A stretch of 58,632 bases of DNA. It comes from Escherichia coli. Lineage in GTDB: Bacteria; Pseudomonadota; Gammaproteobacteria; Enterobacterales; Enterobacteriaceae. The stretch's first letter is position 1. Every line of letters begins with the position of its first letter. A program made the translations under genes and the position numbers. Positions 11,786-25,058 of the stretch are shown here, one piece after another. The stretch is from the NCBI RefSeq assembly GCF_003334765.1, contig NZ_QOWT01000025.1. One strand, written 5' to 3'. The notes beneath the pieces are model-generated. The model made no database searches. It had not been told where the DNA came from and saw only the letters and a list, made by a program, of their open reading frames with translations.

Positions 11786-13159
11786 ATGATGGAAGGTCAA
11801 CAGCACGGCGAGCAGCTAAAGCGCGGCCTTAAAAACCGCCATATTCAGCTTATCGCGCTGGGTGGCGCGATAGGGACCGGGTTATTCCTGGGTAGCGCCT
11901 CCGTAATACAGTCCGCAGGGCCAGGGATTATCCTGGGTTACGCCATTGCTGGTTTTATCGCCTTTCTGATCATGCGTCAGCTGGGTGAAATGGTGGTCGA
12001 AGAACCTGTCGCAGGCTCCTTTAGCCACTTTGCTTATAAATACTGGGGCAGTTTTGCCGGTTTCGCCTCTGGCTGGAACTACTGGGTACTGTACGTTTTA
12101 GTTGCCATGGCTGAGCTGACTGCCGTGGGTAAATACATTCAGTTCTGGTATCCGGAAATCCCCACCTGGGTTTCTGCCGCCGTATTCTTTGTGGTGATTA
12201 ACGCCATCAACCTGACCAACGTTAAAGTGTTTGGCGAGATGGAGTTCTGGTTTGCCATTATCAAAGTTATCGCGGTGGTAGCGATGATCATCTTCGGCGG
12301 CTGGCTGCTATTCAGTGGCAACGGCGGCCCGCAGGCGACCGTTAGCAACCTGTGGGATCAGGGTGGTTTCCTGCCGCACGGCTTCACCGGGCTGGTGATG
12401 ATGATGGCGATTATCATGTTCTCGTTCGGTGGTCTGGAACTGGTGGGGATCACCGCAGCAGAAGCTGATAACCCGGAGCAAAGTATACCGAAAGCAACTA
12501 ACCAGGTTATCTACCGCATCCTGATTTTCTATATTGGTTCGTTAGCCGTTCTGCTCTCACTGATGCCGTGGACCCGCGTTACCGCCGATACCAGTCCGTT
12601 TGTGCTGATCTTCCACGAGTTAGGCGATACCTTTGTGGCGAATGCGCTGAACATCGTGGTACTGACTGCGGCGCTCTCCGTGTACAACAGCTGCGTATAT
12701 TGCAACAGCCGTATGCTGTTTGGTCTGGCACAACAGGGTAATGCGCCAAAAGCGCTGGCGTCTGTCGATAAACGTGGTGTACCAGTAAATACCATTCTGG
12801 TGTCTGCACTGGTAACGGCGTTGTGCGTACTGATTAACTACCTTGCCCCAGAGTCCGCTTTCGGACTGTTAATGGCGCTGGTGGTATCTGCACTGGTAAT
12901 CAACTGGGCGATGATTAGCCTGGCGCATATGAAATTCCGTCGCGCCAAGCAGGAACAAGGCGTGGTAACTCGCTTCCCTGCTCTGCTTTATCCGCTGGGT
13001 AACTGGATCTGCCTGCTGTTTATGGCGGCGGTACTGGTGATTATGCTGATGACCCCAGGAATGGCGATTTCGGTATACCTGATCCCGGTATGGCTGATCG
13101 TGTTAGGTATCGGCTATCTGTTTAAAGAGAAAACCGCCAAAGCCGTAAAAGCGCATTAA
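11786..13159 (+). CDS. aroP: Aromatic amino acid:H+ symporter, 457 aa
   Basis: ORF track 11786..13159 (457 aa, MMEGQQHGEQLKRGLKNRHIQLIALGGAIGTGLFLG..., multi-pass APC-family permease). Confidence 0.95.
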   Translation: MMEGQQHGEQLKRGLKNRHIQLIALGGAIGTGLFLGSASVIQSAGPGIILGYAIAGFIAFLIMRQLGEMVVEEPVAGSFSHFAYKYWGSFAGFASGWNYWVLYVLVAMAELTAVGKYIQFWYPEIPTWVSAAVFFVVINAINLTNVKVFGEMEFWFAIIKVIAVVAMIIFGGWLLFSGNGGPQATVSNLWDQGGFLPHGFTGLVMMMAIIMFSFGGLELVGITAAEADNPEQSIPKATNQVIYRILIFYIGSLAVLLSLMPWTRVTADTSPFVLIFHELGDTFVANALNIVVLTAALSVYNSCVYCNSRMLFGLAQQGNAPKALASVDKRGVPVNTILVSALVTALCVLINYLAPESAFGLLMALVVSALVINWAMISLAHMKFRRAKQEQGVVTRFPALLYPLGNWICLLFMAAVLVIMLMTPGMAISVYLIPVWLIVLGIGYLFKEKTAKAVKAH

Positions 13160-13168
13160 TCTCTCTAC

Positions 13169-13193
13169 GCCCTCACCCGTACAGGGTGAGGGC
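13169..13193. terminator. Inverted repeat / probable terminator hairpin between convergent aroP and ampE
   Basis: GCCCTCACCC-gtaca-GGGTGAGGGC perfect 10-bp stem in the 42-bp gap; flanking U-tracts are weak, so function is inferred. Confidence 0.45.
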
Positions 13194-13201
13194 AATAATC
13201 T

Positions 13202-14056
13202 TTACACCAACGCCCCGTAAATCGTCAGTAGTGCAATCACCACCACGACTACGAACGAGGTTTTCTTCGCCATTGAAACCGCTGCCTTCGGCGTCTCCAC
13301 CTTATCGACATGCGGTTCACGCGCCAGAGAGAACTGCGCCAGACGCGTTAACACCTGATACTGCGAAGTATGGAAATCACCCAGCGAAGCAAACCAGGCC
13401 GGTAACGCTTTCTCACCATGACCGATCAAGGCATATACCACACCCGCAAGACGAACCGGCACCCAATCCAGTACATGAAGCACGGCATCAATGCCGGACT
13501 GTAAACGATGATGCGGCGTCTGATATCGCGCCAGCCAGTATTGCCATGCACGCAAAAACGCATACCCCATCAGCGTAACGGGTCCCCAGGTTCCCCCCAC
13601 AATCAGCCAGAACAGCGGTGCAAGATAAAAACGAAAGTTAATCCACAGCAATGCATTTTGCAGCTCACGCAAATACTCACGTTCGTCGCAGCCTGCCGGG
13701 ACGCCGTGAATCATGGTGAGTTCGCCAGCCATCGTGGCACGGGCATGGCTATCATTACGTGAAGCAGCTGTCAGATAAGCATGATAATGAAGACGAACTT
13801 TACCTGCGCCAATACACAGCAAACCAATCAGCAGCCACACCAGTAGCGTGGGAACGTTGAACAATACTCCCTGCAATGCGCGTAACAGTAAAAAAGTCAC
13901 GCCCATCGCAATAATGGTCATGCCTAACGTGCGCCCGAGAGAAAAATGTTTCACCCGCCGAAAGAACGCTTCAAGACGATGATCAAGCTGCCAGTGCTCG
14001 CCCAACTTAAACAGGCGCTCGAAAATTAACACCAGTAAGGTTGTAAATAGCGTCAT
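13202..14056 (-). CDS. ampE: Inner-membrane protein AmpE, 284 aa
   Basis: ORF track 13202..14095; known AmpE N-terminus [23 protein letters not shown] starts 13 codons inside, at an ATG overlapping the ampD stop (ATGA at 14053-14056). Confidence 0.9.
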
Positions 14057-14604
14057 GTTGTCTCCTTGCTGACCAGCACACGAAACCGTGCCCAATCAAA
14101 TGCAGGACCGGGATCGGTTTTCCGATCCGGCGCAATATCACAATGGCCCGTCATGTTTTTAGCGATATCCGGATAGCAATCAATCAGTGCCCGCGTAACC
14201 GCCGCAAGCTGTTGATACTGCGCATCGGTATACGCCAGCGTATCGGTGCCTTCAAGCTCAATCCCAATAGAAAAATCATTGCAGCGTTCGCGCCCCTGAT
14301 ACTGAGAGACTCCCGCATGCCATGCACGTTTATCGAAAGGAACATACTGGACTATTTCACCATCACGGCGAATCAAACAGTGAGCGGAGACGCGCAAATG
14401 GGCGATCTCAGCAAAGAAAGGATGTGCCTGCGGATCAATAGTTCCAGTGAATAATGCGTCGATCCACGGACCGCCAAACTCGCCTGGCGGCAGGCTAATA
14501 TTGTGCACCACCAGCAGGGTGGGTGTTTCGTCATCCGGGCGGCAATCGTAATGTGGTGAGGGAACGCGGCGCGCGCCAACCAGCCACCCCTGTTCTAACA
14601 ACAT
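14053..14604 (-). CDS. ampD: 1,6-anhydro-N-acetylmuramyl-L-alanine amidase, 183 aa
   Basis: ORF track 14053..14604 (183 aa, [45 protein letters not shown]...). Confidence 0.95.
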
Positions 14605-14631
14605 GCAGGATCTCCTTATATGTGGTGCTAA

Positions 14632-15585
<954 letters not shown>

Positions 15586-15787
15586 TAGTTGACAGATTTA
15601 TCCGCTCCATCGCGGGCGGATAATCTCCCCTTCCCCAACTTTCTTCGTAACGCCTCGCAAATTTCTTATCTTTCGCTGCAACGAAATAAAAAACCTCGGA
15701 ATCTGCTTTCCCGTTTCGTTTTTTGCCCCTCGCCTGTGCTGATGGCGTTTGCCAAAGTAGCGCCAACCAAATCAAGGAGCGAAACAG

Positions 15788-16228
15788 ATGGACAAGCAAC
15801 GCGGTTTTACACTTATCGAACTGATGGTGGTTATTGGCATCATTGCCATTTTAAGCGCCATTGGTATTCCCGCTTATCAAAACTACCTGCGCAAAGCCGC
15901 ACTCACCGACATGCTACAAACCTTTGTGCCTTACCGTACCGCCGTAGAGTTGTGCGCGCTGGAACATGGTGGATTAGATACCTGCGACGGTGGCAGCAAT
16001 GGCATTCCCTCGCCTACCACCACCCGCTATGTTTCAGCCATGAGTGTGGCAAAGGGCGTGGTGTCGCTGACCGGGCAAGAAAGTCTCAATGGGCTAAGCG
16101 TCGTCATGACACCGGGTTGGGATAACGCAAACGGCGTCACCGGCTGGACGCGCAACTGCAATATTCAAAGTGACAGCGCATTGCAGCAAGCCTGCGAAGA
16201 TGTCTTCCGCTTTGATGACGCCAACTAA
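15788..16228 (+). CDS. ppdD: Prepilin peptidase-dependent type IV pilin PpdD, 146 aa
   Basis: ORF track 15788..16228 (MDKQRGFTLIELMVVIGIIAILSAIGIPAYQNY..., class III prepilin signal GFTLIE). Confidence 0.93.
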   Translation: MDKQRGFTLIELMVVIGIIAILSAIGIPAYQNYLRKAALTDMLQTFVPYRTAVELCALEHGGLDTCDGGSNGIPSPTTTRYVSAMSVAKGVVSLTGQESLNGLSVVMTPGWDNANGVTGWTRNCNIQSDSALQQACEDVFRFDDAN

Positions 16229-16237
16229 GGAGCGGCA

Positions 16238-17623
16238 ATGAATATTCCACAGCTCACTGCCCTGTGTCTGCGTTATCATGGAGTCTTGCTGGATGCCAGC
16301 GAAGAGGTGGTTCATGTTGCGGTAGTCGATGCACCTTCGCATGAGCTACTGGACGCATTGCATTTCGCTACCACCAAACGTATTGAGATCACCTGCTGGA
16401 CGCGCCAACAAATGGAAGGTCACGCCAGTCGCACACAACAGACATTGCCCGTAGCTGTTCAGGAGAAGCATCAGCCCAAAGCAGAGTTGCTAACTCGAAC
16501 GTTACAATCTGCGCTGGAACAACGCGCGTCTGATATTCATATCGAACCAGCGGACAATGCCTACCGCATCCGCTTGCGTATCGACGGCGTATTGCATCCT
16601 TTACCGGATGTTTCACCGGATGCCGGAGTCGCATTAACCGCCAGATTAAAAGTGCTGGGAAACCTGGATATTGCGGAACATCGCCTGCCGCAGGACGGGC
16701 AATTCACTGTCGAACTGGCAGGAAACGCCGTCTCATTTCGTATTGCGACCTTACCATGTCGGGGTGGTGAAAAGGTGGTATTAAGGTTGTTACAGCAGGT
16801 GGGTCAGGCACTGGATGTCAACACGCTTGGAATGCAGCCGTTACAACTGGCGGACTTTGCTCATGCCTTGCAACAACCACAGGGACTGGTGCTGGTAACT
16901 GGCCCTACCGGCAGCGGCAAAACGGTCACGCTTTATAGTGCCCTGCAAAAGCTGAATACCGCTGACATTAATATTTGTAGCGTCGAAGATCCAGTTGAGA
17001 TCCCCATAGCCGGACTAAACCAGACGCAAATCCATCCGCGTGCCGGACTCACCTTTCAGGGCGTTTTGCGTGCGTTATTGCGCCAGGATCCTGACGTCAT
17101 CATGATCGGAGAGATCCGCGATGGCGAAACAGCAGAGATCGCTATTAAAGCGGCGCAAACTGGTCACCTGGTGTTGTCTACCCTACACACTAATTCCACC
17201 TGCGAAACGCTGGTACGTTTACAGCAAATGGGGGTCGCCCGCTGGATGCTATCATCGGCGCTTACGCTGGTAATAGCCCAGCGTCTGGTACGCAAACTTT
17301 GCCCACATTGTCGCCGGCAGCAAGGGGAGCCCATCCACATTCCAGACAATGTATGGCCATCGCCGCTGCCCCACTGGCAGGCACCCGGTTGTGTACATTG
17401 CTACCACGGTTTTTATGGTCGTACGGCCTTATTTGAAGTTCTGCCCATAACGCCGGTCATTCGTCAGCTTATTTCCGCTAATACCGACGTTGAATCGCTG
17501 GAAACGCACGCACGACAGGCGGGTATGCGTACGCTTTTTGAAAACGGCTGCCTGGCCGTAGAGCAAGGCTTAACCACCTTTGAAGAGTTAATCCGCGTAC
17601 TGGGGATGCCGCATGGCGAGTAA
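16238..17623 (+). CDS. hofB: Type IV pilus assembly ATPase (GspE/PilB family), 461 aa
   Basis: ORF track 16238..17623; Walker A GPTGSGKT and C-terminal CxxC...CxxC tetracysteine motif are present. Confidence 0.93.
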   Translation: MNIPQLTALCLRYHGVLLDASEEVVHVAVVDAPSHELLDALHFATTKRIEITCWTRQQMEGHASRTQQTLPVAVQEKHQPKAELLTRTLQSALEQRASDIHIEPADNAYRIRLRIDGVLHPLPDVSPDAGVALTARLKVLGNLDIAEHRLPQDGQFTVELAGNAVSFRIATLPCRGGEKVVLRLLQQVGQALDVNTLGMQPLQLADFAHALQQPQGLVLVTGPTGSGKTVTLYSALQKLNTADINICSVEDPVEIPIAGLNQTQIHPRAGLTFQGVLRALLRQDPDVIMIGEIRDGETAEIAIKAAQTGHLVLSTLHTNSTCETLVRLQQMGVARWMLSSALTLVIAQRLVRKLCPHCRRQQGEPIHIPDNVWPSPLPHWQAPGCVHCYHGFYGRTALFEVLPITPVIRQLISANTDVESLETHARQAGMRTLFENGCLAVEQGLTTFEELIRVLGMPHGE

Positions 17624-18815
17624 GCAACTCTGGCGCTGGCATGGCATAACCGGCGACGGCAATGCGCAAGATGGGATGCTATGGGCAGAGAGCCGTACTT
17701 TACTGCTTATGGCACTACAGCAACAGATGGTTACCCCACTAAGCCTGAAGCGAATCGCCATCAATTCTGCGCAGTGGCGAGGAGATAAAAGCGCGGAAGT
17801 CATTCATCAACTGGCGACGCTACTCAAAGCAGGGTTAACGCTTTCTGAAGGGCTGGCTCTGCTGGCGGAACAGCATCCCAGTAAGCAATGGCAAGCGTTG
17901 CTGCAATCGCTGGCGCACGATCTCGAACAGGGCATTGCTTTTTCCAATGCCTTATTACCCTGGTCAGAGGTATTTCCGCCGCTCTATCAGGCGATGATCC
18001 GCACGGGTGAACTGACCGGTAAGCTGGATGAATGCTGCTTTGAACTGGCGCGTCAGCAAAAAGCCCAGCGTCAGTTGACCGACAAAGTGAAATCAGCGTT
18101 ACGTTATCCCATCATCATTTTAGCGATGGCAATCATGGTGGTTGTGGCAATGCTGCATTTTGTTCTGCCGGAGTTTGCCGCTATCTATAAGACCTTCAAC
18201 ACCCCACTACCGGCACTAACGCAGGGGATCATGACGCTGGCAGACTTTAGTGGCGAATGGAGCTGGCTGCTGGTGTTGTTCGGCTTTCTGCTGGCGATAG
18301 CCAATAAGTTGCTGATGCGCCGACCGACCTGGCTTATAGTGCGGCAGAAATTGCTGTTACGCATCCCGATTATGGGTTCACTGATGCGGGGACAAAAACT
18401 CACGCAGATCTTTACGATTCTGGCGCTGACACAAAGTGCAGGCATTACTTTTTTACAGGGCGTAGAGAGCGTCAGAGAAACAATGCGCTGCCCGTACTGG
18501 GTGCAACTTCTGACACAAATCCAGCACGATATCAGTAACGGTCAACCCATCTGGCTGGCGCTAAAAAATACCGGTGAGTTTAGCCCGCTCTGTTTGCAAT
18601 TAGTGAGAACAGGAGAGGCATCCGGCTCTCTGGATCTCATGTTAGACAACCTCGCCCATCATCATCGGGAAAACACAATGGCGCTGGCGGATAACCTCGC
18701 AGCCTTACTGGAACCGGCGTTGCTGATCATAACGGGAGGAATTATTGGTACGCTGGTGGTGGCAATGTATCTGCCAATTTTCCATTTAGGCGATGCGATG
18801 AGTGGGATGGGATAA
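17613..18815 (+). CDS. hofC: Type IV pilus inner-membrane platform protein (GspF/PilC family), 400 aa
   Basis: ORF track 17613..18815 (400 aa); overlaps the hofB 3' end by 11 nt. Confidence 0.93.
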   Translation: MASKQLWRWHGITGDGNAQDGMLWAESRTLLLMALQQQMVTPLSLKRIAINSAQWRGDKSAEVIHQLATLLKAGLTLSEGLALLAEQHPSKQWQALLQSLAHDLEQGIAFSNALLPWSEVFPPLYQAMIRTGELTGKLDECCFELARQQKAQRQLTDKVKSALRYPIIILAMAIMVVVAMLHFVLPEFAAIYKTFNTPLPALTQGIMTLADFSGEWSWLLVLFGFLLAIANKLLMRRPTWLIVRQKLLLRIPIMGSLMRGQKLTQIFTILALTQSAGITFLQGVESVRETMRCPYWVQLLTQIQHDISNGQPIWLALKNTGEFSPLCLQLVRTGEASGSLDLMLDNLAHHHRENTMALADNLAALLEPALLIITGGIIGTLVVAMYLPIFHLGDAMSGMG

Positions 18816-18843
18816 CGCTGGCGTGTTGCTCCACGCCAGCGTT
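18814..18843. terminator. Perfect inverted repeat between convergent hofC and guaC (probable bidirectional terminator)
   Basis: AACGCTGGCGTG-ttgctc-CACGCCAGCGTT (12-bp perfect stem) overlapping the hofC stop; no strong U-tract. Confidence 0.5.
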
Positions 18844-18849
18844 GGGAGA

Positions 18850-19893
18850 TTACAGGTTGTTGAAGATGCGGTTTTCTTGTTCCTGCACACGAATAAACGT
18901 GGTGCGCTTGGTCAGCTCTTTCAGGCGTGAAGCCCCAACGTATGTACAAGCTGAACGCAGGCCGCCCAAAATATCTCGCGCGGTATTTTCAACCGGGCCT
19001 CGCAGCGGCAGCTTAACGGTTTTACCTTCTGCTGCGCGATATTCCGCAACGCCGCCAACGTGACGTTTCATCGCAGACTCGGAGCTCATGCCGTAGAACA
19101 GCATAAATTTCTCGCCGTTCTCCTCAACGATGCGACCGCCGCTCTCTTCGTGGCCCGCCAGCATGCCGCCAAGCATGACGAAATCGGCACCGCCGCCAAA
19201 GGCTTTCGCCACATCGCCCGGCGTGGTGCAGCCACCATCGCTGACGATCATTCCGCCCAGACCGTGCGCAGCATCGGCACATTCGATTACCGCAGAAAGT
19301 TGCGGATAACCGACGCCTGTTTTGACGCGAGTTGTACAAACAGAACCTGGGCCAATGCCAACTTTAACGATATCGGCACCTGAGAGGATAAGCTCCTCAC
19401 ACATTTCACCAGTCACTACGTTACCAGCACAAATGGTTTTGGTCGGCCACGCTTCACGCGCTTTCGCAACGAACTGCACGAAGTGTTCGGAATAACCATT
19501 CGCCACGTCAATACAAACGAAGTTTAATGCCGGGTTCAGGTCGAGAATCTGTTTAGTTTTTTCGAAATCCGCATCAGACGTACCGGTAGAAACCATCACA
19601 TGTTTCAGCACATCAGCGGAAGAATTGTTGATAAACGCTTGCCACTCTTCGACAGAATAGTGTTTATGCACAGCAGTCAAAATATCAAAAGAAGCCAGCG
19701 CAGAGGCCATAGAAAATGTGCCTACGGTGTCCATATTTGCGGCGATAATCGGCACGCCGGACCAGCTCTGACCTGAATGTTTGAAGGTGAATTGACGTTC
19801 CAGTTCAACATCGGAACGGCTTTTAAGAGTGGAGCGTTTAGGGCGGATGAGAACGTCTTTAAAACCTAACTTCAGATCTTCTTCAATACGCAT
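18850..19893 (-). CDS. guaC: GMP reductase, 347 aa
   Basis: ORF track 18850..19893 ([40 protein letters not shown]...). Confidence 0.96.
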
Positions 19894-20117
19894 GTGCGGA
19901 TTCCTGGGGTTAATGGCTATAAGGGTAAGAGCGCAACTCCAGTGACGCTATCATACGCACTAATCAATGCGGCGCAAGACTGCGAAATTGTCTTTTTTTA
20001 CGCTACAATCCCATAAATTTACCTGGTAAATAGTGAGCGAACGTTTCATCAATTTCGCTTTCGTGCACTCATTTTTAACGTTTTGATAATCATGATGAAT
20101 TCCCGGGAATATAAATT

Positions 20118-20738
20118 ATGAGGTATATAGTTGCCTTAACGGGAGGCATTGGCAGTGGCAAGAGTACCGTTGCCAATGCGTTTGCTGATCTCGGAATTAA
20201 CGTCATTGATGCCGATATTATTGCGCGTCAGGTGGTTGAACCAGGTGCACCTGCGCTACATGCCATTGCTGATCACTTTGGCGCTAACATGATTGCTGCT
20301 GATGGAACATTGCAGCGCCGGGCCTTGCGCGAGCGGATCTTCGCCAACCCGGAAGAGAAAAACTGGCTTAACGCCCTGCTGCATCCGCTGATTCAGCAAG
20401 AGACGCAACACCAGATCCAGCAAGCTACTTCCCCCTATGTACTGTGGGTTGTGCCATTGCTGGTAGAAAACTCACTGTATAAAAAAGCGAATCGAGTGCT
20501 TGTGGTGGATGTCAGCCCAGAAACGCAACTTAAGCGCACCATGCAGCGCGATGATGTAACTCGCGAGCATGTCGAACAAATCCTTGCTGCTCAGGCAACG
20601 CGCGAAGCCCGCCTTGCCGTGGCAGATGACGTCATTGATAATAACGGCGCACCGGATGCTATCGCATCGGATGTTGCCCGCCTGCACGCACACTATTTGC
20701 AGCTTGCGTCGCAGTTTGTCTCACAGGAAAAACCGTAA
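20118..20738 (+). CDS. coaE: Dephospho-CoA kinase, 206 aa
   Basis: ORF track 20118..20738 ([33 protein letters not shown]..., P-loop). Confidence 0.95.
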
Positions 20739-21481
20739 TGCAGACCCAGGTCCTTTTTGAACATCCACTAAATGAAAAAATGCGTACATGGCTGCGCATT
20801 GAGTTTTTGATTCAGCAACTCACCGTTAATTTACCCATCGTTGACCACGCTGGCGCGCTGCATTTCTTCCGTAATGTCAGTGAATTACTGGATGTTTTCG
20901 AGCGCGGCGAAGTCCGCACTGAGCTGTTGAAAGAACTTGACCGGCAGCAACGTAAACTCCAGACCTGGATTGGCGTGCCTGGCGTGGACCAGAGCCGTAT
21001 TGAAGCATTAATTCAGCAGTTAAAAGCGGCGGGGAGCGTATTAATTTCCGCGCCGCGTATCGGGCAATTTCTGCGTGAAGATCGTTTGATTGCTCTGGTG
21101 CGTCAGCGACTGAGCATCCCAGGCGGCTGTTGCAGCTTTGATTTACCTACATTGCACATTTGGCTGCATCTACCCCAGGCGCAGCGCGACAGCCAGGTAG
21201 AAACCTGGATTGCCAGCCTGAACCCGCTCACCCAGGCACTTACCATGGTGCTGGATTTAATTCGCCAGTCGGCCCCCTTCCGTAAACAAACCAGCCTGAA
21301 TGGTTTTTATCAGGATAACGGTGGCGATGCCGACTTGCTGCGCCTGAATCTGTCGCTCGATTCACAGCTTTATCCGCAAATTTCCGGACATAAGAGCCGT
21401 TTTGCCATTCGTTTTATGCCGCTGGACACTGAAAACGGACAGGTACCGGAACGTCTGGATTTCGAACTGGCCTGTTGCTAA
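20738..21481 (+). CDS. zapD: Cell division protein ZapD (FtsZ-associated), 247 aa
   Basis: ORF track 20738..21481 ([28 protein letters not shown]...); start overlaps the coaE stop by 1 nt (TAATG). Confidence 0.93.
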
Positions 21482-21490
21482 GGAGTAAAA

Positions 21491-21688
21491 ATGTCAGAAA
21501 CTATTACGGTGAATTGCCCAACCTGCGGGAAAACGGTGGTGTGGGGTGAAATCAGCCCGTTTCGGCCATTTTGCTCCAAACGTTGTCAGCTGATCGACCT
21601 CGGAGAATGGGCTGCTGAAGAAAAACGAATCCCCAGCAGTGGCGATCTTTCCGAAAGCGATGACTGGAGCGAAGAACCAAAGCAGTGA
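21491..21688 (+). CDS. yacG: DNA gyrase inhibitor YacG, zinc-finger protein, 65 aa
   Basis: ORF track 21491..21688 ([40 protein letters not shown]..., C4 zinc ribbon). Confidence 0.9.
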
Positions 21689-21708
21689 CATTTGTCTGAT
21701 GCCGCACG

Positions 21709-21792
<84 letters not shown>

Positions 21793-21825
21793 AAAACAAA
21801 TTTATCAATGAGTTAGAAATCCCTT

Positions 21826-21908
21826 TAGGCCTGATAAGACGCGCCAGCGTCGCATCAGGCATCGTGTGCGAATGTCGGATGCGGCGAAAACGCCTTATCT
21901 GACCTACA
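21826..21908. repeat. REP/BIME-type palindromic unit, copy 2 (overlaps the mutT 3' end)
   Basis: Direct repeat of copy 1 with only a few substitutions/indels; its last 5 nt overlap the mutT stop region. Confidence 0.8.
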
Positions 21909-22293
21909 GACGTTTAAGCTTCGCAATTACCGGTTCATTGGCTGGCGGAAAATCATCGGCATTAAGACCGACCAGCGACATCCACTCACCGGGTTGCCCT
22001 TCTTTACCCCACGGCTCCCCTTCCCAGCGTTCGACCAGCCAAAACCACAGTGTTATATGCCTGTCCGGGAATTCATATTCCAGTTTTTCAAATAGCGAAA
22101 AATGTTGGGGGGTAATCCCGACTTCTTCCTGAAGTTCACGCACCACCGCCTGTTCCGGCGTTTCACCCATTTCAATTTTACCGCCGGGAAACTCCAGTTT
22201 ATTCGCCATGTGCGCATCTGCTGCGCGACGCGTTATAAAGATTTCATTGTTCTCGTTGCGAATAATACCTACCGCAATTTGCAGCTTTTTCAT
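21904..22293 (-). CDS. mutT: 8-oxo-dGTP diphosphatase (Nudix), 129 aa
   Basis: ORF track 21904..22293 (MKKLQIAVGIIRNENNEIFITRRAADAHMANKLEFPGGKIEMGETPEQAVVRELQEEVGI, Nudix box). Confidence 0.95.
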   Translation of the reverse strand: MKKLQIAVGIIRNENNEIFITRRAADAHMANKLEFPGGKIEMGETPEQAVVRELQEEVGITPQHFSLFEKLEYEFPDRHITLWFWLVERWEGEPWGKEGQPGEWMSLVGLNADDFPPANEPVIAKLKRL

Positions 22294-22305
22294 TGTCTTA
22301 AACCT

Positions 22306-22331
22306 ATAAAAAAGGCGCAGAATCCTGCGCC
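22306..22331 (-). terminator. Intrinsic terminator-like hairpin downstream of secA
   Basis: Stem GGCGCAG (22314-22320) / CTGCGCC (22325-22331), loop AATC; on the minus strand it is followed by UUUUUUAU (plus-strand A-run 22306-22313). Confidence 0.55.
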
Positions 22332-22352
22332 TTTTACTTCAACAGTTAGCTT

Positions 22353-25058
22353 TTATTGCAGGCGGCCATGGCACTGCTTGTATTTTTTACCAGAACCGCA
22401 CGGGCAAGGATCGTTACGTCCTACTTTGCGCTCTCCGGTTTGCGCCGCCAGTGCAGCTGCGGCTGCAGAGTCGTCATCCTGATGGCTAAGCTGCTGCATT
22501 TGCGCTAAACGCTCGGCTTCCATACGACGCTGTTGTTCCAGCTCCTCAACCTCTTCAGGCATACGTACCTGAACTTTGCTCAGCGTACTGATAACTTCAT
22601 ATTTCAACGACTCCAGCATCGCTGCAAACATGGAGAACGATTCACGTTTGTATTCCTGCTTCGGATCTTTCTGTGCGTAGCCACGCAGGTGGATACCCTG
22701 ACGCAGATAGTCCATCGCTGCCAGGTGCTCTTTCCACAGGGAGTCAAGCGTTTGCAGCATGACGCCTTTCTCGAAGTGACGCATCATCTCAGCACCAACC
22801 ACTTCTTCTTTACGCTGATACACTTCGATGGACTGCGCCAGAATGCGCTCACGCAGCGTCTCTTCATGCAGTTCTGGTTCTTTATCCAGCCACTCGGCAA
22901 TTGGCAAATCGAGGTCGAAATCGTTCTTCAGACGTTCCTGCAGCCCCGGAATATCCCACATTTCTTCCAGCGACTGTGGTGGAATGTAGGCATCAATGGT
23001 CGCTTTGAACACATCTTCACGAATGCTGTTAATGGTTTCGCTCACATCGCTGACATCCAACAGTTCGTTACGCTGGGAGTAAATGGCGCGACGCTGATCG
23101 TTAGCCACGTCATCATATTCCAGCAGTTGCTTACGAATGTCGAAGTTACGGCTTTCAACTTTACGCTGGGCGTTGGCAATCGCTTTAGTCACCCACGGGT
23201 GTTCAATGGCTTCGCCTGGCTTCATACCCAGTTTACGCATCATGCCGGATACTCGGTCGGAAGCAAAAATACGCATCAGCGCATCTTCCATCGACAGGTA
23301 GAAACGGGAAGAACCAGCATCCCCCTGACGACCAGAACGACCGCGCAACTGGTTATCGATACGACGGGATTCGTGACGCTCGGTACCGATGATATGCAGG
23401 CCACCTGCTTCCAGTACCGCATCGTGACGTACCTGCCAGTCGGCTTTAATTTTTTCAATTTGCTCTGCGGTCGGATTTTCCAGCGCGGCAACTTCTGCCT
23501 GCCAGCTACCACCGAGCACAATATCTGTACCACGACCCGCCATATTGGTCGCGATAGTCACCGCAGCCGGATAACCTGCCTGAGCAACAATCGCCGCTTC
23601 GTTGGCGTGGAATTTGGCGTTCAGGACGTTGTGCTTAATACCGGCTTTGGTCAGTTCGTTTGACACCAGCTCCGATTTTTCGATGGAGATAGTACCCACC
23701 AGCACCGGCTGGCCTTTCGCAGTACGTTCTTTGATATCTTCAATGATCGCCTGAATTTTTTCCGCTTCAGTCATGTAGACCAGGTCCGGCAGATCTTTAC
23801 GAATCATTGGACGGTTGGTCGGAACAACGACGGTATCCAGCTTGTAGATTGAGCTAAATTCGAAAGCTTCGGTATCAGCAGTACCGGTCATCCCCGCCAG
23901 TTTTTCATACAGACGGAAGTAGTTCTGGAAGGTGATCGAAGCCAGCGTTTGGTTTTCGTTCTGGATCTGCACACCTTCTTTCGCTTCCACAGCCTGGTGC
24001 AGACCATCGGACCAGCGACGGCCCTGCATGGTACGACCGGTGTGTTCGTCAACGATGATAACTTCACCATCTTTAACGATGTAGTCGACGTCACGGGTAA
24101 ACAGCGCATGAGCGCGCAGCGCCGCCGTTACGTGGTGCATCAGCATGATGTTGGCCGGAGAGTACAGAGACTCCCCTTCATCCATGATGCCCTCTTTCAC
24201 CAGCAGTTCTTCAATCAGCACCAGACCACGTTCGGTCAGGTTCACCTGGCGAGATTTTTCGTCCACCGAGAAGTGGCCTTCGCCCTGGAAGGTTTCGGAG
24301 TCTTCTTTTTCCTGACGGATCAGGTGCGGAATAATTTTATTCACGCGTTTATACATTTCCGAGCTGTCTTCTGCCGGGCCGGAAATGATCAGCGGTGTAC
24401 GCGCTTCATCGATCAGGATGGAGTCCACTTCGTCCACCAGCGCATAGTGCAGTTTACGCTGTACACGTTCTTCAGGGCTGAACGCCATGTTGTCGCGCAG
24501 GTAGTCAAAGCCGTATTCGTTGTTCGTACCGTAAGTGATGTCAGCTGCGTAAGCTTCGCGCTTTGCCGGTGCTGGCATGCCCGGCAGGTTGATACCGACA
24601 GTCAGGCCAAGGAATTCAAACAGCGGACGGTTGTTTTCGGCGTCACGTTGCGCCAGGTAGTCGTTGACGGTAACTACGTGCACGCCTTTACCGGTTAGTG
24701 CGTTCAGGTAAGCAGGCAGCGTTGCGGTCAGGGTTTTTCCTTCACCGGTACGCATTTCGGCGATGCAGCGTTCGTTAAGAACCATACCGCCGAGTAACTG
24801 AACGTCGAAGTGACGCATACCAAAGACGCGCTTACTTGCCTCACGTACCACGGCGAAAGCTTCCGGGATCAGATTTTCCAGCACTTCGCCTTTTTCCAGA
24901 CGTGCACGAAACTCTGCGGTTTTCCCTTTCAGTTCTTCGTCGGAGAGTTTTTCCATCTCCGGTTCCATGGCATTGATGATGTTGACCACTTTGCGCATCC
25001 GGCGCAGGGTGCGATCGTTACGACTACCGAAAACTTTAGTTAACAATTTGATTAGCAT
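22353..25058 (-). CDS. secA: Preprotein translocase ATPase SecA, 901 aa
   Basis: ORF track 22353..25058 ([45 protein letters not shown]..., C-terminal zinc-binding [14 protein letters not shown]). Confidence 0.97.

Follow-up and report, generated by a model that had tools for sequence, protein, structure and literature searches.

Why does Escherichia coli carry three genes of a type IV pilus machine that stay silent in laboratory culture, and what would switch them on? The stretch of DNA analysed here (referred to as the window; 58,632 nucleotides of contig NZ_QOWT01000025.1, assembly GCF_003334765.1) holds these genes, ppdD, hofB and hofC, with nadC on the plus strand upstream and guaC on the minus strand downstream. 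The locus is the well-known E. coli ppdD-hofB-hofC operon, and as textbook biology it carries little weight as a discovery. It is very probably the cytoplasmic-membrane core of a dispersed type IVa or competence-pilus system, silent unless Sxy and cyclic AMP (cAMP)-CRP act on it, and located at the ancestral position of the pilABCD genes. The present comparison established which genes are there, that they are intact, the selection acting on them, their synteny, and where the promoter elements lie and how well they are conserved.

The three reading frames lie on the plus strand. ppdD (15788–16228) encodes a type IVa major prepilin of 146 residues, hofB (16238–17623) a PilB/GspE-type assembly ATPase of 461 residues, which is a pilB orthologue by synteny, and hofC (17613–18815) a PilC/GspF-type inner-membrane platform protein of 400 residues. 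ppdD and hofB are separated by a gap of 9 nt (16229–16237), and hofB and hofC overlap by 11 nt (17613–17623). All three proteins exceed the curated cut-offs of their NCBIfam equivalog models (269 bits against 138 for PpdD, 823 against 617 for HofB and 661 against 401 for HofC); the open reading frame (ORF) listing and these scores bear out the gene identities and the compact operon that an earlier note, made from the sequence, had described.

The proteins also carry the expected functional motifs. PpdD has a leader of six residues (MDKQRG-FTLIE) with cleavage after G6, matches TIGR02532 and NF007862, and has the attributes of a class III signal peptide, namely a leader that is short and basic, with Gly at −1, Phe at +1 and Glu at +5. 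The chain in the structure of the pilus from enterohaemorrhagic E. coli (EHEC), PDB 6gv9, begins at F7 of PpdD, and the protein contains four cysteine residues (two disulfides). HofB, in which the Pfam T2SSE domain spans residues 75–453, contains a Walker A motif (GPTGSGKT, 222–229), an Asp box (250–254), a Walker B motif (287–295), a His box (313–318) and a tetracysteine motif (CPHC 355–358 and CVHC 385–388). HofC consists of two T2SSF domains (64–186 and 269–388).

PpdD, HofB and HofC are identical to the proteins of E. coli K-12 MG1655 and differ from those of EHEC O157:H7 by 1, 4 and 10 residues respectively, with synonymous changes far exceeding non-synonymous ones. The 3.3-kb region is 100% identical to that of E. 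coli strain EC4, with which the whole window is collinear, and the locus is matched in 5425 of 5426 complete E. coli genomes. In the same search, 3 of 5438 matching places were on plasmid-labelled records, and one complete genome of the 5426 gave no match.

The other parts of the machine are encoded elsewhere in the genome. The annotated gene list of the window, which runs from acnB to sgrR, contains no secretin, A24 peptidase or minor pilin; a secretin with the PilMNOP alignment proteins, minor pilins and a retraction ATPase are likewise absent from the window, and tblastn with four PilD sequences against the whole window returned nothing below E = 0.1. The partners are annotated elsewhere in K-12 as five further sets, hofMNOPQ, ppdA-ppdB-ygdB-ppdC, pppA, gspO and yggR, of which pppA and gspO supply prepilin peptidases. 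The dependence on unlinked loci expected from the missing neighbours is therefore supported, and “complete”, as the module had been called, is a misnomer for three genes whose system is complete but dispersed at the level of the genome. Reconstitution of the EHEC pilus reportedly used about thirteen genes.

In the proposed mechanism, the PpdD prepilin would enter the inner membrane and be cut after Gly6 by an unlinked A24 peptidase (PppA or GspO). A hexameric HofB ATPase, docked on the HofC platform, would power pilin polymerisation, whilst the minor pilins PpdA, PpdB, YgdB and PpdC would prime the fibre, which would pass the HofMNOP alignment complex and then the HofQ secretin. The three genes would form one transcription unit read from a very weak core promoter with a predicted start near 15765, and this promoter would be off unless cAMP-CRP and its co-activator Sxy (TfoX) act at a CRP-S site at 15644–15659. 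The operon would look cryptic because sxy is barely expressed in culture. It stands at the ancestral proteobacterial pilABCD site, with pilD lost in the Enterobacterales and guaC in its slot.

What is said here of the dependence on Sxy and CRP, of pilin processing, of pilus assembly by EHEC and by reconstituted K-12 and of DNA uptake comes from the literature. Cameron & Redfield predicted one CRP-S site at ppdD, detected weak specific binding of CRP to a fragment corresponding to window positions 15575–15705, and found that Sxy induces ppdD about 90-fold in a strictly CRP- and cAMP-dependent manner (PMC1635313). Expression of sxy leads to processed PpdD and to hofQ-dependent DNA uptake (Sinha & Redfield, PMC3330819); CRP and Sxy contact each other directly in a class-I-like mechanism, and sxy is autoregulated (Søndberg et al., PMC6728893). 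The machinery of K-12 is capable of assembly, the assembly genes of EHEC function in K-12, and EHEC is reported to make PpdD pili on minimal casein medium. The crypticity in laboratory culture that had been noted agrees with these studies (PMC1635313, PMC3330819, PMC2649431). The activating signal, which the earlier note left as a question, is in part answered, as the proximal activator is published (Sxy with cAMP-CRP, PMC1635313). The question is thus narrowed from what activates the operon to what induces sxy in nature, and whether or not there is a second input.

The nadC-ppdD spacers of 20 Enterobacterales were aligned and have a mean identity of 35%, with discrete conserved blocks. Just 3′ of the nadC stop codon, a terminator-like hairpin without a T-run (15594–15626, plus strand; RNA fold −16 kcal/mol, z = −3.0) separates nadC from the ppdD promoter, and the aligned relatives have a hairpin there too, in several cases with a T-run. 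It is followed by the distal CRP-S site (15641–15662, plus strand), whose core at 15644–15659 reads TTCGTAACGCCTCGCA and contains the conserved TGCGA half-site on the bottom strand, promoter-proximal, as well as the diagnostic C at position 6. This core is the only match with two or fewer mismatches in the nadC-ppdD spacer, and it lies inside the 15575–15705 fragment shifted by CRP in Cameron & Redfield 2006. T15644, C15646, G15647, C15658 and A15659 are near-invariant in the 20 Enterobacterales. Of the 16 taxa in which TGCAA is matched exactly, 13 have a 16-mer with three or fewer mismatches at the CRP-S offset, compared with about 2% of background 16-mers.

Two further blocks are conserved between this site and the gene. 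A TGCAAC box at 15677–15682 on the plus strand (reverse complement GTTGCA) is near-invariant across the Enterobacterales and is a candidate CytR half-site. The block at 15697–15712 (plus strand), CGGAATCTGCTTTCCC, which appears as GAAnnCGCCTTCCCGA in relatives, lies 53 bp from the distal site and may, tentatively, be a second CRP-S-like site of low strength; the fragment of Cameron & Redfield, which ends at 15705, takes it in only in part. It is similar in its half-sites to TTCCG and TTCCC, the weak half-sites found in the CRP-S sites of sxy and ppdA; against the CRP consensus it has 5 mismatches in 10 in E. coli, which equals the background median, and a mean of 4.6 across taxa, where the background is 5.6. 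Position 15668, between the CRP-S site and the TGCAAC box, is A in the window and G in K-12 and EHEC.

A consensus scan of 15400–20200 found no strong sigma-70 promoter, and this lack fits dependence on an activator. A weak sigma-70 core promoter is predicted at 15730–15758 on the plus strand, with a −35 element TCGCCT (15730–15735), a 17-bp spacer, a TG at 15750–15751 and a −10 element CAAAGT (15753–15758), and with transcription predicted to start near 15765. T15730, G15732 and A15754 are invariant in the 20 taxa and T15758 and C15764 near-invariant, and it is because this pattern of T..G, A...T and C(A) has the exact geometry of a −35 element, a −10 element and a start that the weak core promoter is placed here. 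The Shine-Dalgarno sequence of ppdD, AAGGAG, follows at 15774–15779 (plus strand), with its GGAG invariant or nearly so in the alignment. The search of the spacer for a promoter therefore had a divided outcome: no strong sigma-70 promoter is present, and a CRP-S site and a predicted weak core promoter are.

Several points weigh against the account given so far. With the predicted start, the CRP-S site would lie at about −113.5, beyond the reported CRP-S range of −62 to −100. That ppdD, hofB and hofC are co-transcribed is deduced from their spacing, with a 9-nt gap and an 11-nt overlap, and from there being no internal terminator. Pilin was found in culture in 0 of 72 ECOR strains and no natural inducing condition was found (PMC3330819); natural expression in K-12 has never been seen, and the physiological role may be adhesion, uptake of DNA as a nutrient or transformation.

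The promoter of ppdA, which belongs to the unlinked minor-pilin operon of K-12, is collinear with that of ppdD for about 115 bp, apart from one 1-nt indel. Comparison block by block and cross-species alignments showed this; a stringent local alignment of the two promoters recovered the CRP-S part only, and 21 of 1000 shuffles scored as high or higher. Relative to the predicted starts, ppdD has the CRP-S site at −113.5, the box at −88 and the second block at −60.5, and ppdA has the CRP-S site at −111.5, TGCAAC boxes at −96 and −86 and a CRP-S-like block at −59.5. The ppdA core consists of a −35 element TCGTCT and a −10 element CATACT. Its ATG follows exactly 7 nt after the −10 element, with no Shine-Dalgarno sequence (K-12 thyA-ppdA spacer, L087 6179–6361, minus strand), which suggests a leaderless mRNA. 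The thyA-ppdA spacer was compared between K-12 and ten further genera (L098–L107), in which the two boxes are kept, as are the proximal block, often in the form GGAT-AACGCC-TCGTA, and the invariant −10 element; TGCAAC thus occurs twice, with a period of 10 bp and at the offset of the ppdD box, in the ppdA promoters of 11 genera. This shared composite layout is possibly a new point, and the only lead in the present analysis with some novelty.

The layout raises an addition to the Sxy-CRP reading, which would supplement and not replace it: CytR may bind at TGCAAC, and a CRP-CytR-CRP complex may gate ppdD, ppdA and hofM by nucleoside (cytidine), positively or negatively. This idea, drawn by analogy, is tentative. 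The published CytR operator signature consists of TGCAA and GTTGCATT repeats between two CRP sites (PMC3454398), which are 49–53 bp apart (PMC4581735), and both the motif and its placement between two conserved blocks 52–53 bp apart, the proximal one a poor match to the CRP consensus, resemble that description. The boxes are kept in 20 ppdD promoters and in 11 ppdA promoters of different genera. The pilA promoter of Vibrio variabilis has a matching layout: a CRP-S-like site is followed after 7 nt by TGCAA and after 5 nt more by a second TGCAA, and these offsets are those of E. coli ppdA. Upstream of 11 K-12 genes of the Sxy regulon, TGCAA/TTGCA occurs 14 times against 4.9 expected (P = 6e-4), and within 162 kb of E. 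coli DNA ppdA and hofM are the only places with the tandem TGCAA-N5-TGCAA. In Vibrio cholerae, TfoX and CytR are both required for pilABCD, for the minor-pilin cluster and for pilMNOPQ, through a mechanism reported as unknown (PMC4581735), and cytidine inhibits competence. According to Søndberg et al. (PMC6728893), no description exists of conservation outside the CRP site in the CRP-S promoters of E. coli.

Against CytR stand the single good box in ppdD, the proximal CRP-like block, which is no better than the background median in E. coli, and the start of ppdD, whose position is predicted only. The hofM boxes lie within the mrcA coding sequence, and ppdD, ppdA and hofM are not among the genes that one comparative study assigns to the CytR regulon. 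A literature search found no E. coli binding or expression data for CytR at these promoters, and overproduction of Sxy alone is enough for the induction of about 90-fold (PMC1635313). If the boxes were CytR operators, nucleosides would be a testable cue for a system that has gone uninduced for decades, and the layout shared with Vibrio pilA would explain why the competence pilus of V. cholerae needs TfoX and CytR. A palindrome CGCAAC-GC-GTTGCA, which resembles an optimal inverted pair of CytR octamers, is found 84 nt upstream of the PilT-like gene yggR, inside the yggS coding sequence (K-12, L097 ~7156–7169).

A second reading of the same box is unlikely. Here TGCAAC would be the −35 element of a class I promoter with the CRP-S site at −61.5, a start near 15712 and a 75-nt 5′ untranslated region that takes in the conserved downstream blocks. 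The 17 nt between the CRP core and the box equal the spacing of CRP core and −35 hexamer in lac, a class I arrangement with the site near −62 is expected of CRP-S promoters, and ybaV has TGTAAC at nearly the same offset; the model was favoured at first, and was dropped because no conserved −10 element follows. At 16–18 bp from the box, E. coli has GAATCT where close relatives have GAACCC or GAAGCC, so that the key T is lost, whereas the invariant T..G, A...T, C(A) pattern further downstream has the exact −35, −10 and +1 geometry and recurs in ppdA, whose CATACT lies exactly 7 nt before the ATG. Nor does a −35 hexamer explain the two ppdA boxes 10 bp apart. The weak core promoter at 15730–15758, dependent on Sxy and cAMP-CRP, is accordingly retained as the preferred reading.

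How the operon came to lie between nadC and guaC was examined in 80 related loci from one-genome-per-species collections, anchored on an alignment of nine HofC sequences and with twelve neighbouring proteins of the window mapped onto them. All 20 Enterobacterales loci have ampE(−), ampD(−), nadC(+), ppdD, hofB and hofC, mostly followed by guaC(−), and then coaE, zapD and yacG(+) and mutT(−). These loci come from Escherichia, Citrobacter, Enterobacter, Pseudocitrobacter, Pluralibacter, Siccibacter, Shimwellia, Erwinia, Pantoea, Serratia, Yersinia, Rahnella, Pectobacterium and one metagenome-assembled genome, and include a short Pantoea stewartii contig without the upstream flank. Outside the Enterobacterales, pilB and pilC are followed by an ORF of about 290 residues and then by coaE, with zapD, yacG and mutT next in many loci. 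This order is found in Vibrio, Grimontia, Amphritea, Pseudomonas, Xanthomonadales and several beta-proteobacteria, and ampD-nadC is kept upstream in Vibrio, Grimontia, Amphritea and one Pseudomonas. The ORF between pilC and coaE is PilD, because it carries the Pfam domains A24_N_bact and Peptidase_A24; these proteins gave no NCBIfam match. The comparison with intact type IV pilus loci thus finds orthologous pilA, pilB and pilC genes at the same chromosomal position, and the enteric guaC, on the opposite strand, occupies the slot of the non-enteric pilD.

guaC is not at this slot in two Enterobacterales, Erwinia endophytica and Pantoea sp. 1.19. Erwinia endophytica retains a C-terminal remnant of guaC (68% identity over 44 residues, E = 1e-14), and the loss of guaC there is therefore secondary. 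In Pantoea sp. 1.19 the hofC-coaE gap (L023 11204–11779) consists of G+C-rich tandem repeats of about 120 bp and holds neither guaC nor pilD, and a second hofB/hofC-like pair is located 7 kb downstream (L023 18156–20500). No remnant of PilD was found in the enteric loci, and none of pilD or guaC in the hofC-guaC or guaC-coaE spacers of E. coli.

The order ampD-nadC-pilA-pilB-pilC-pilD-coaE-zapD-yacG, as judged from these gene orders, is ancestral in the gamma- and beta-proteobacteria. The G+C content of the operon is uniform, at 0.52–0.545 the same as that of its flanks, and there are no mobile-element features at the locus. From the conserved synteny and the uniform G+C it follows that the pilus genes are ancestral here, that pilD was lost and that guaC is the newcomer. 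The missing peptidase is a lineage-specific loss, with guaC now in the pilD slot, and the earlier description of the operon as inserted between nadC and guaC has to be reversed. That the three genes are instead a horizontally acquired island might be suggested by their function, which is unrelated to that of the flanking metabolic genes, and deserves almost no credence: it is contradicted by an order from ampD through (pilD) and coaE to mutT that is kept from Enterobacterales to Vibrionaceae and Pseudomonas and in part in beta-proteobacteria, and by the flank-like G+C and lack of mobile-element features.

An A24 prepilin-peptidase-like ORF is present between mutT and secA, about 3.5 kb from hofC, in Erwinia persicina (260 residues; L015 14704–15486) and, apparently truncated, in Erwinia endophytica (L019 13740–14351). 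The corresponding position in E. coli has only about 60 bp, and pairwise identities give no decision on whether this Erwinia peptidase is a relocated pilD.

As had been stated from the sequence, the frames show no frameshifts or premature stops: the ORF listing contains no internal stop in ppdD, hofB or hofC. Compared with E. albertii, the ratio of non-synonymous to synonymous substitution rates (dN/dS) is 0.042 for ppdD, 0.076 for hofB and 0.060 for hofC, and that of the flanking housekeeping genes ranges from 0.011 to 0.088. The major pilin is the component that varies most in the majority of type IV pilus systems. Here, compared with Citrobacter, dN is 0.16–0.21 for HofB and HofC and 0.03–0.09 for PpdD and the neighbouring housekeeping genes; non-synonymous change in HofB and HofC thus builds up two to four times faster than in the pilin and the neighbours, and both proteins are still strongly constrained. 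The purifying selection (dN/dS 0.04–0.08) and near-universal presence of the locus mean that it is not decaying. That the cluster is a decaying remnant without function in E. coli, as its silence in culture and the lack of an adjacent peptidase or secretin might suggest, is contradicted by its intact frames, its housekeeping-like dN/dS, its presence in 5425 of 5426 genomes, promoter elements kept across genera, the processed pilin and hofQ-dependent DNA uptake induced by Sxy, and the pili assembled from near-identical EHEC alleles, and can practically be discarded. The operon is no relic: it is maintained and regulated as part of a dispersed machine.

The operon ends at a perfect hairpin of 12–13 bp (18813–18844; −24 kcal/mol on both strands, z = −4.7 and −7.6), which fills the 34-nt convergent spacer between the stop codons of hofC and guaC and is probably a bidirectional terminator, as judged from its sequence. 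A scan of 13000–22500 found no Rfam family inside the operon. Beyond it, three matches exceed the Rfam gathering thresholds: two REP-derived naRNA4 (CssrE) elements, located between yacG and mutT (21711–21788 and 21828–21904), and the small RNA STnc40, between mutT and secA (22308–22377). The guaC-coaE spacer (19894–20117) contains an annotated ORF of 14 codons, yacM, whose sequence GCTACAATC recurs in the hofC-coaE gap of Pantoea sp. 1.19 as GGCTACAATCG; CACTACAATCG is found in the hofC-coaE gap of Erwinia endophytica. This shared sequence may be the −10 region of the coaE promoter. Further along, strain EC4 has an IS4-like (ISVsa5) insertion between leuO and leuL (L003 24117–25446) that is absent from the window (~49526–49535), and the annotation of EC4 marks leuO, which has an internal stop, as a pseudogene.

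Among known systems, the promoter invites comparison with the CytR/CRP promoters deoP2, cdd, udp and tsx, which have two CRP-type sites; in ppdD and ppdA, one or more TGCAA-type boxes lie between a CRP-S site and a tentative second CRP-like block 52–53 bp away. It differs from the deoP2 type in that both CRP sites of ppdD and ppdA would be weak and of the CRP-S type, ppdD has a single box, and the CytR site is a candidate. The CRP pair of deoP2 is located at −40/−93, and that of ppdD (−60/−113) about 20 bp further upstream.

The ATPase and platform GspE and GspF of type II secretion belong to the same superfamilies as HofB and HofC. In contrast to type II secretion loci, the gene lists show no GspC, D, L or M and no pseudopilins GspG–K adjacent to the operon, the true gsp cluster is elsewhere, PpdD is a true type IVa pilin, and synteny gives orthology to pilB and pilC. 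HofB scores 486 bits against PilB and 458 bits against GspE, both below the cut-offs; the RefSeq name of HofB, “type II secretion system protein GspE”, is misleading because of the synteny and the higher PilB score. Relative to the PilB model TIGR02538, HofB is about 100 residues shorter at the N-terminus (the alignment starts from profile position 160), and a weak MshEN match remains.

The pilABCD operons of Vibrio cholerae, Pseudomonas aeruginosa and other gamma-proteobacteria have the same orthologous pilin, ATPase and platform in the same order and neighbourhood, and differ in that the Enterobacterales lack pilD and have guaC, on the opposite strand, in its place. The pilABCD of Haemophilus influenzae, compared through the literature only, follows the same logic of a CRP-S site, Sxy and cAMP-CRP with a role in DNA uptake (PMC1635313, PMC3330819); unlike there, CRP-S sites in E. 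coli are asymmetric, and neither a natural inducing condition nor chromosomal transformation is known for this species (PMC3330819). The closest relation is to the HCP pilus of EHEC O157:H7, whose hcpA-hcpB-hcpC genes are the same locus as ppdD-hofB-hofC, with the 1, 4 and 10 residue differences given above. EHEC is reported to produce HCP on minimal casein medium (PMC2920817), which K-12-type strains have not been seen to do, and the structure of the HCP filament has been solved (6gv9).

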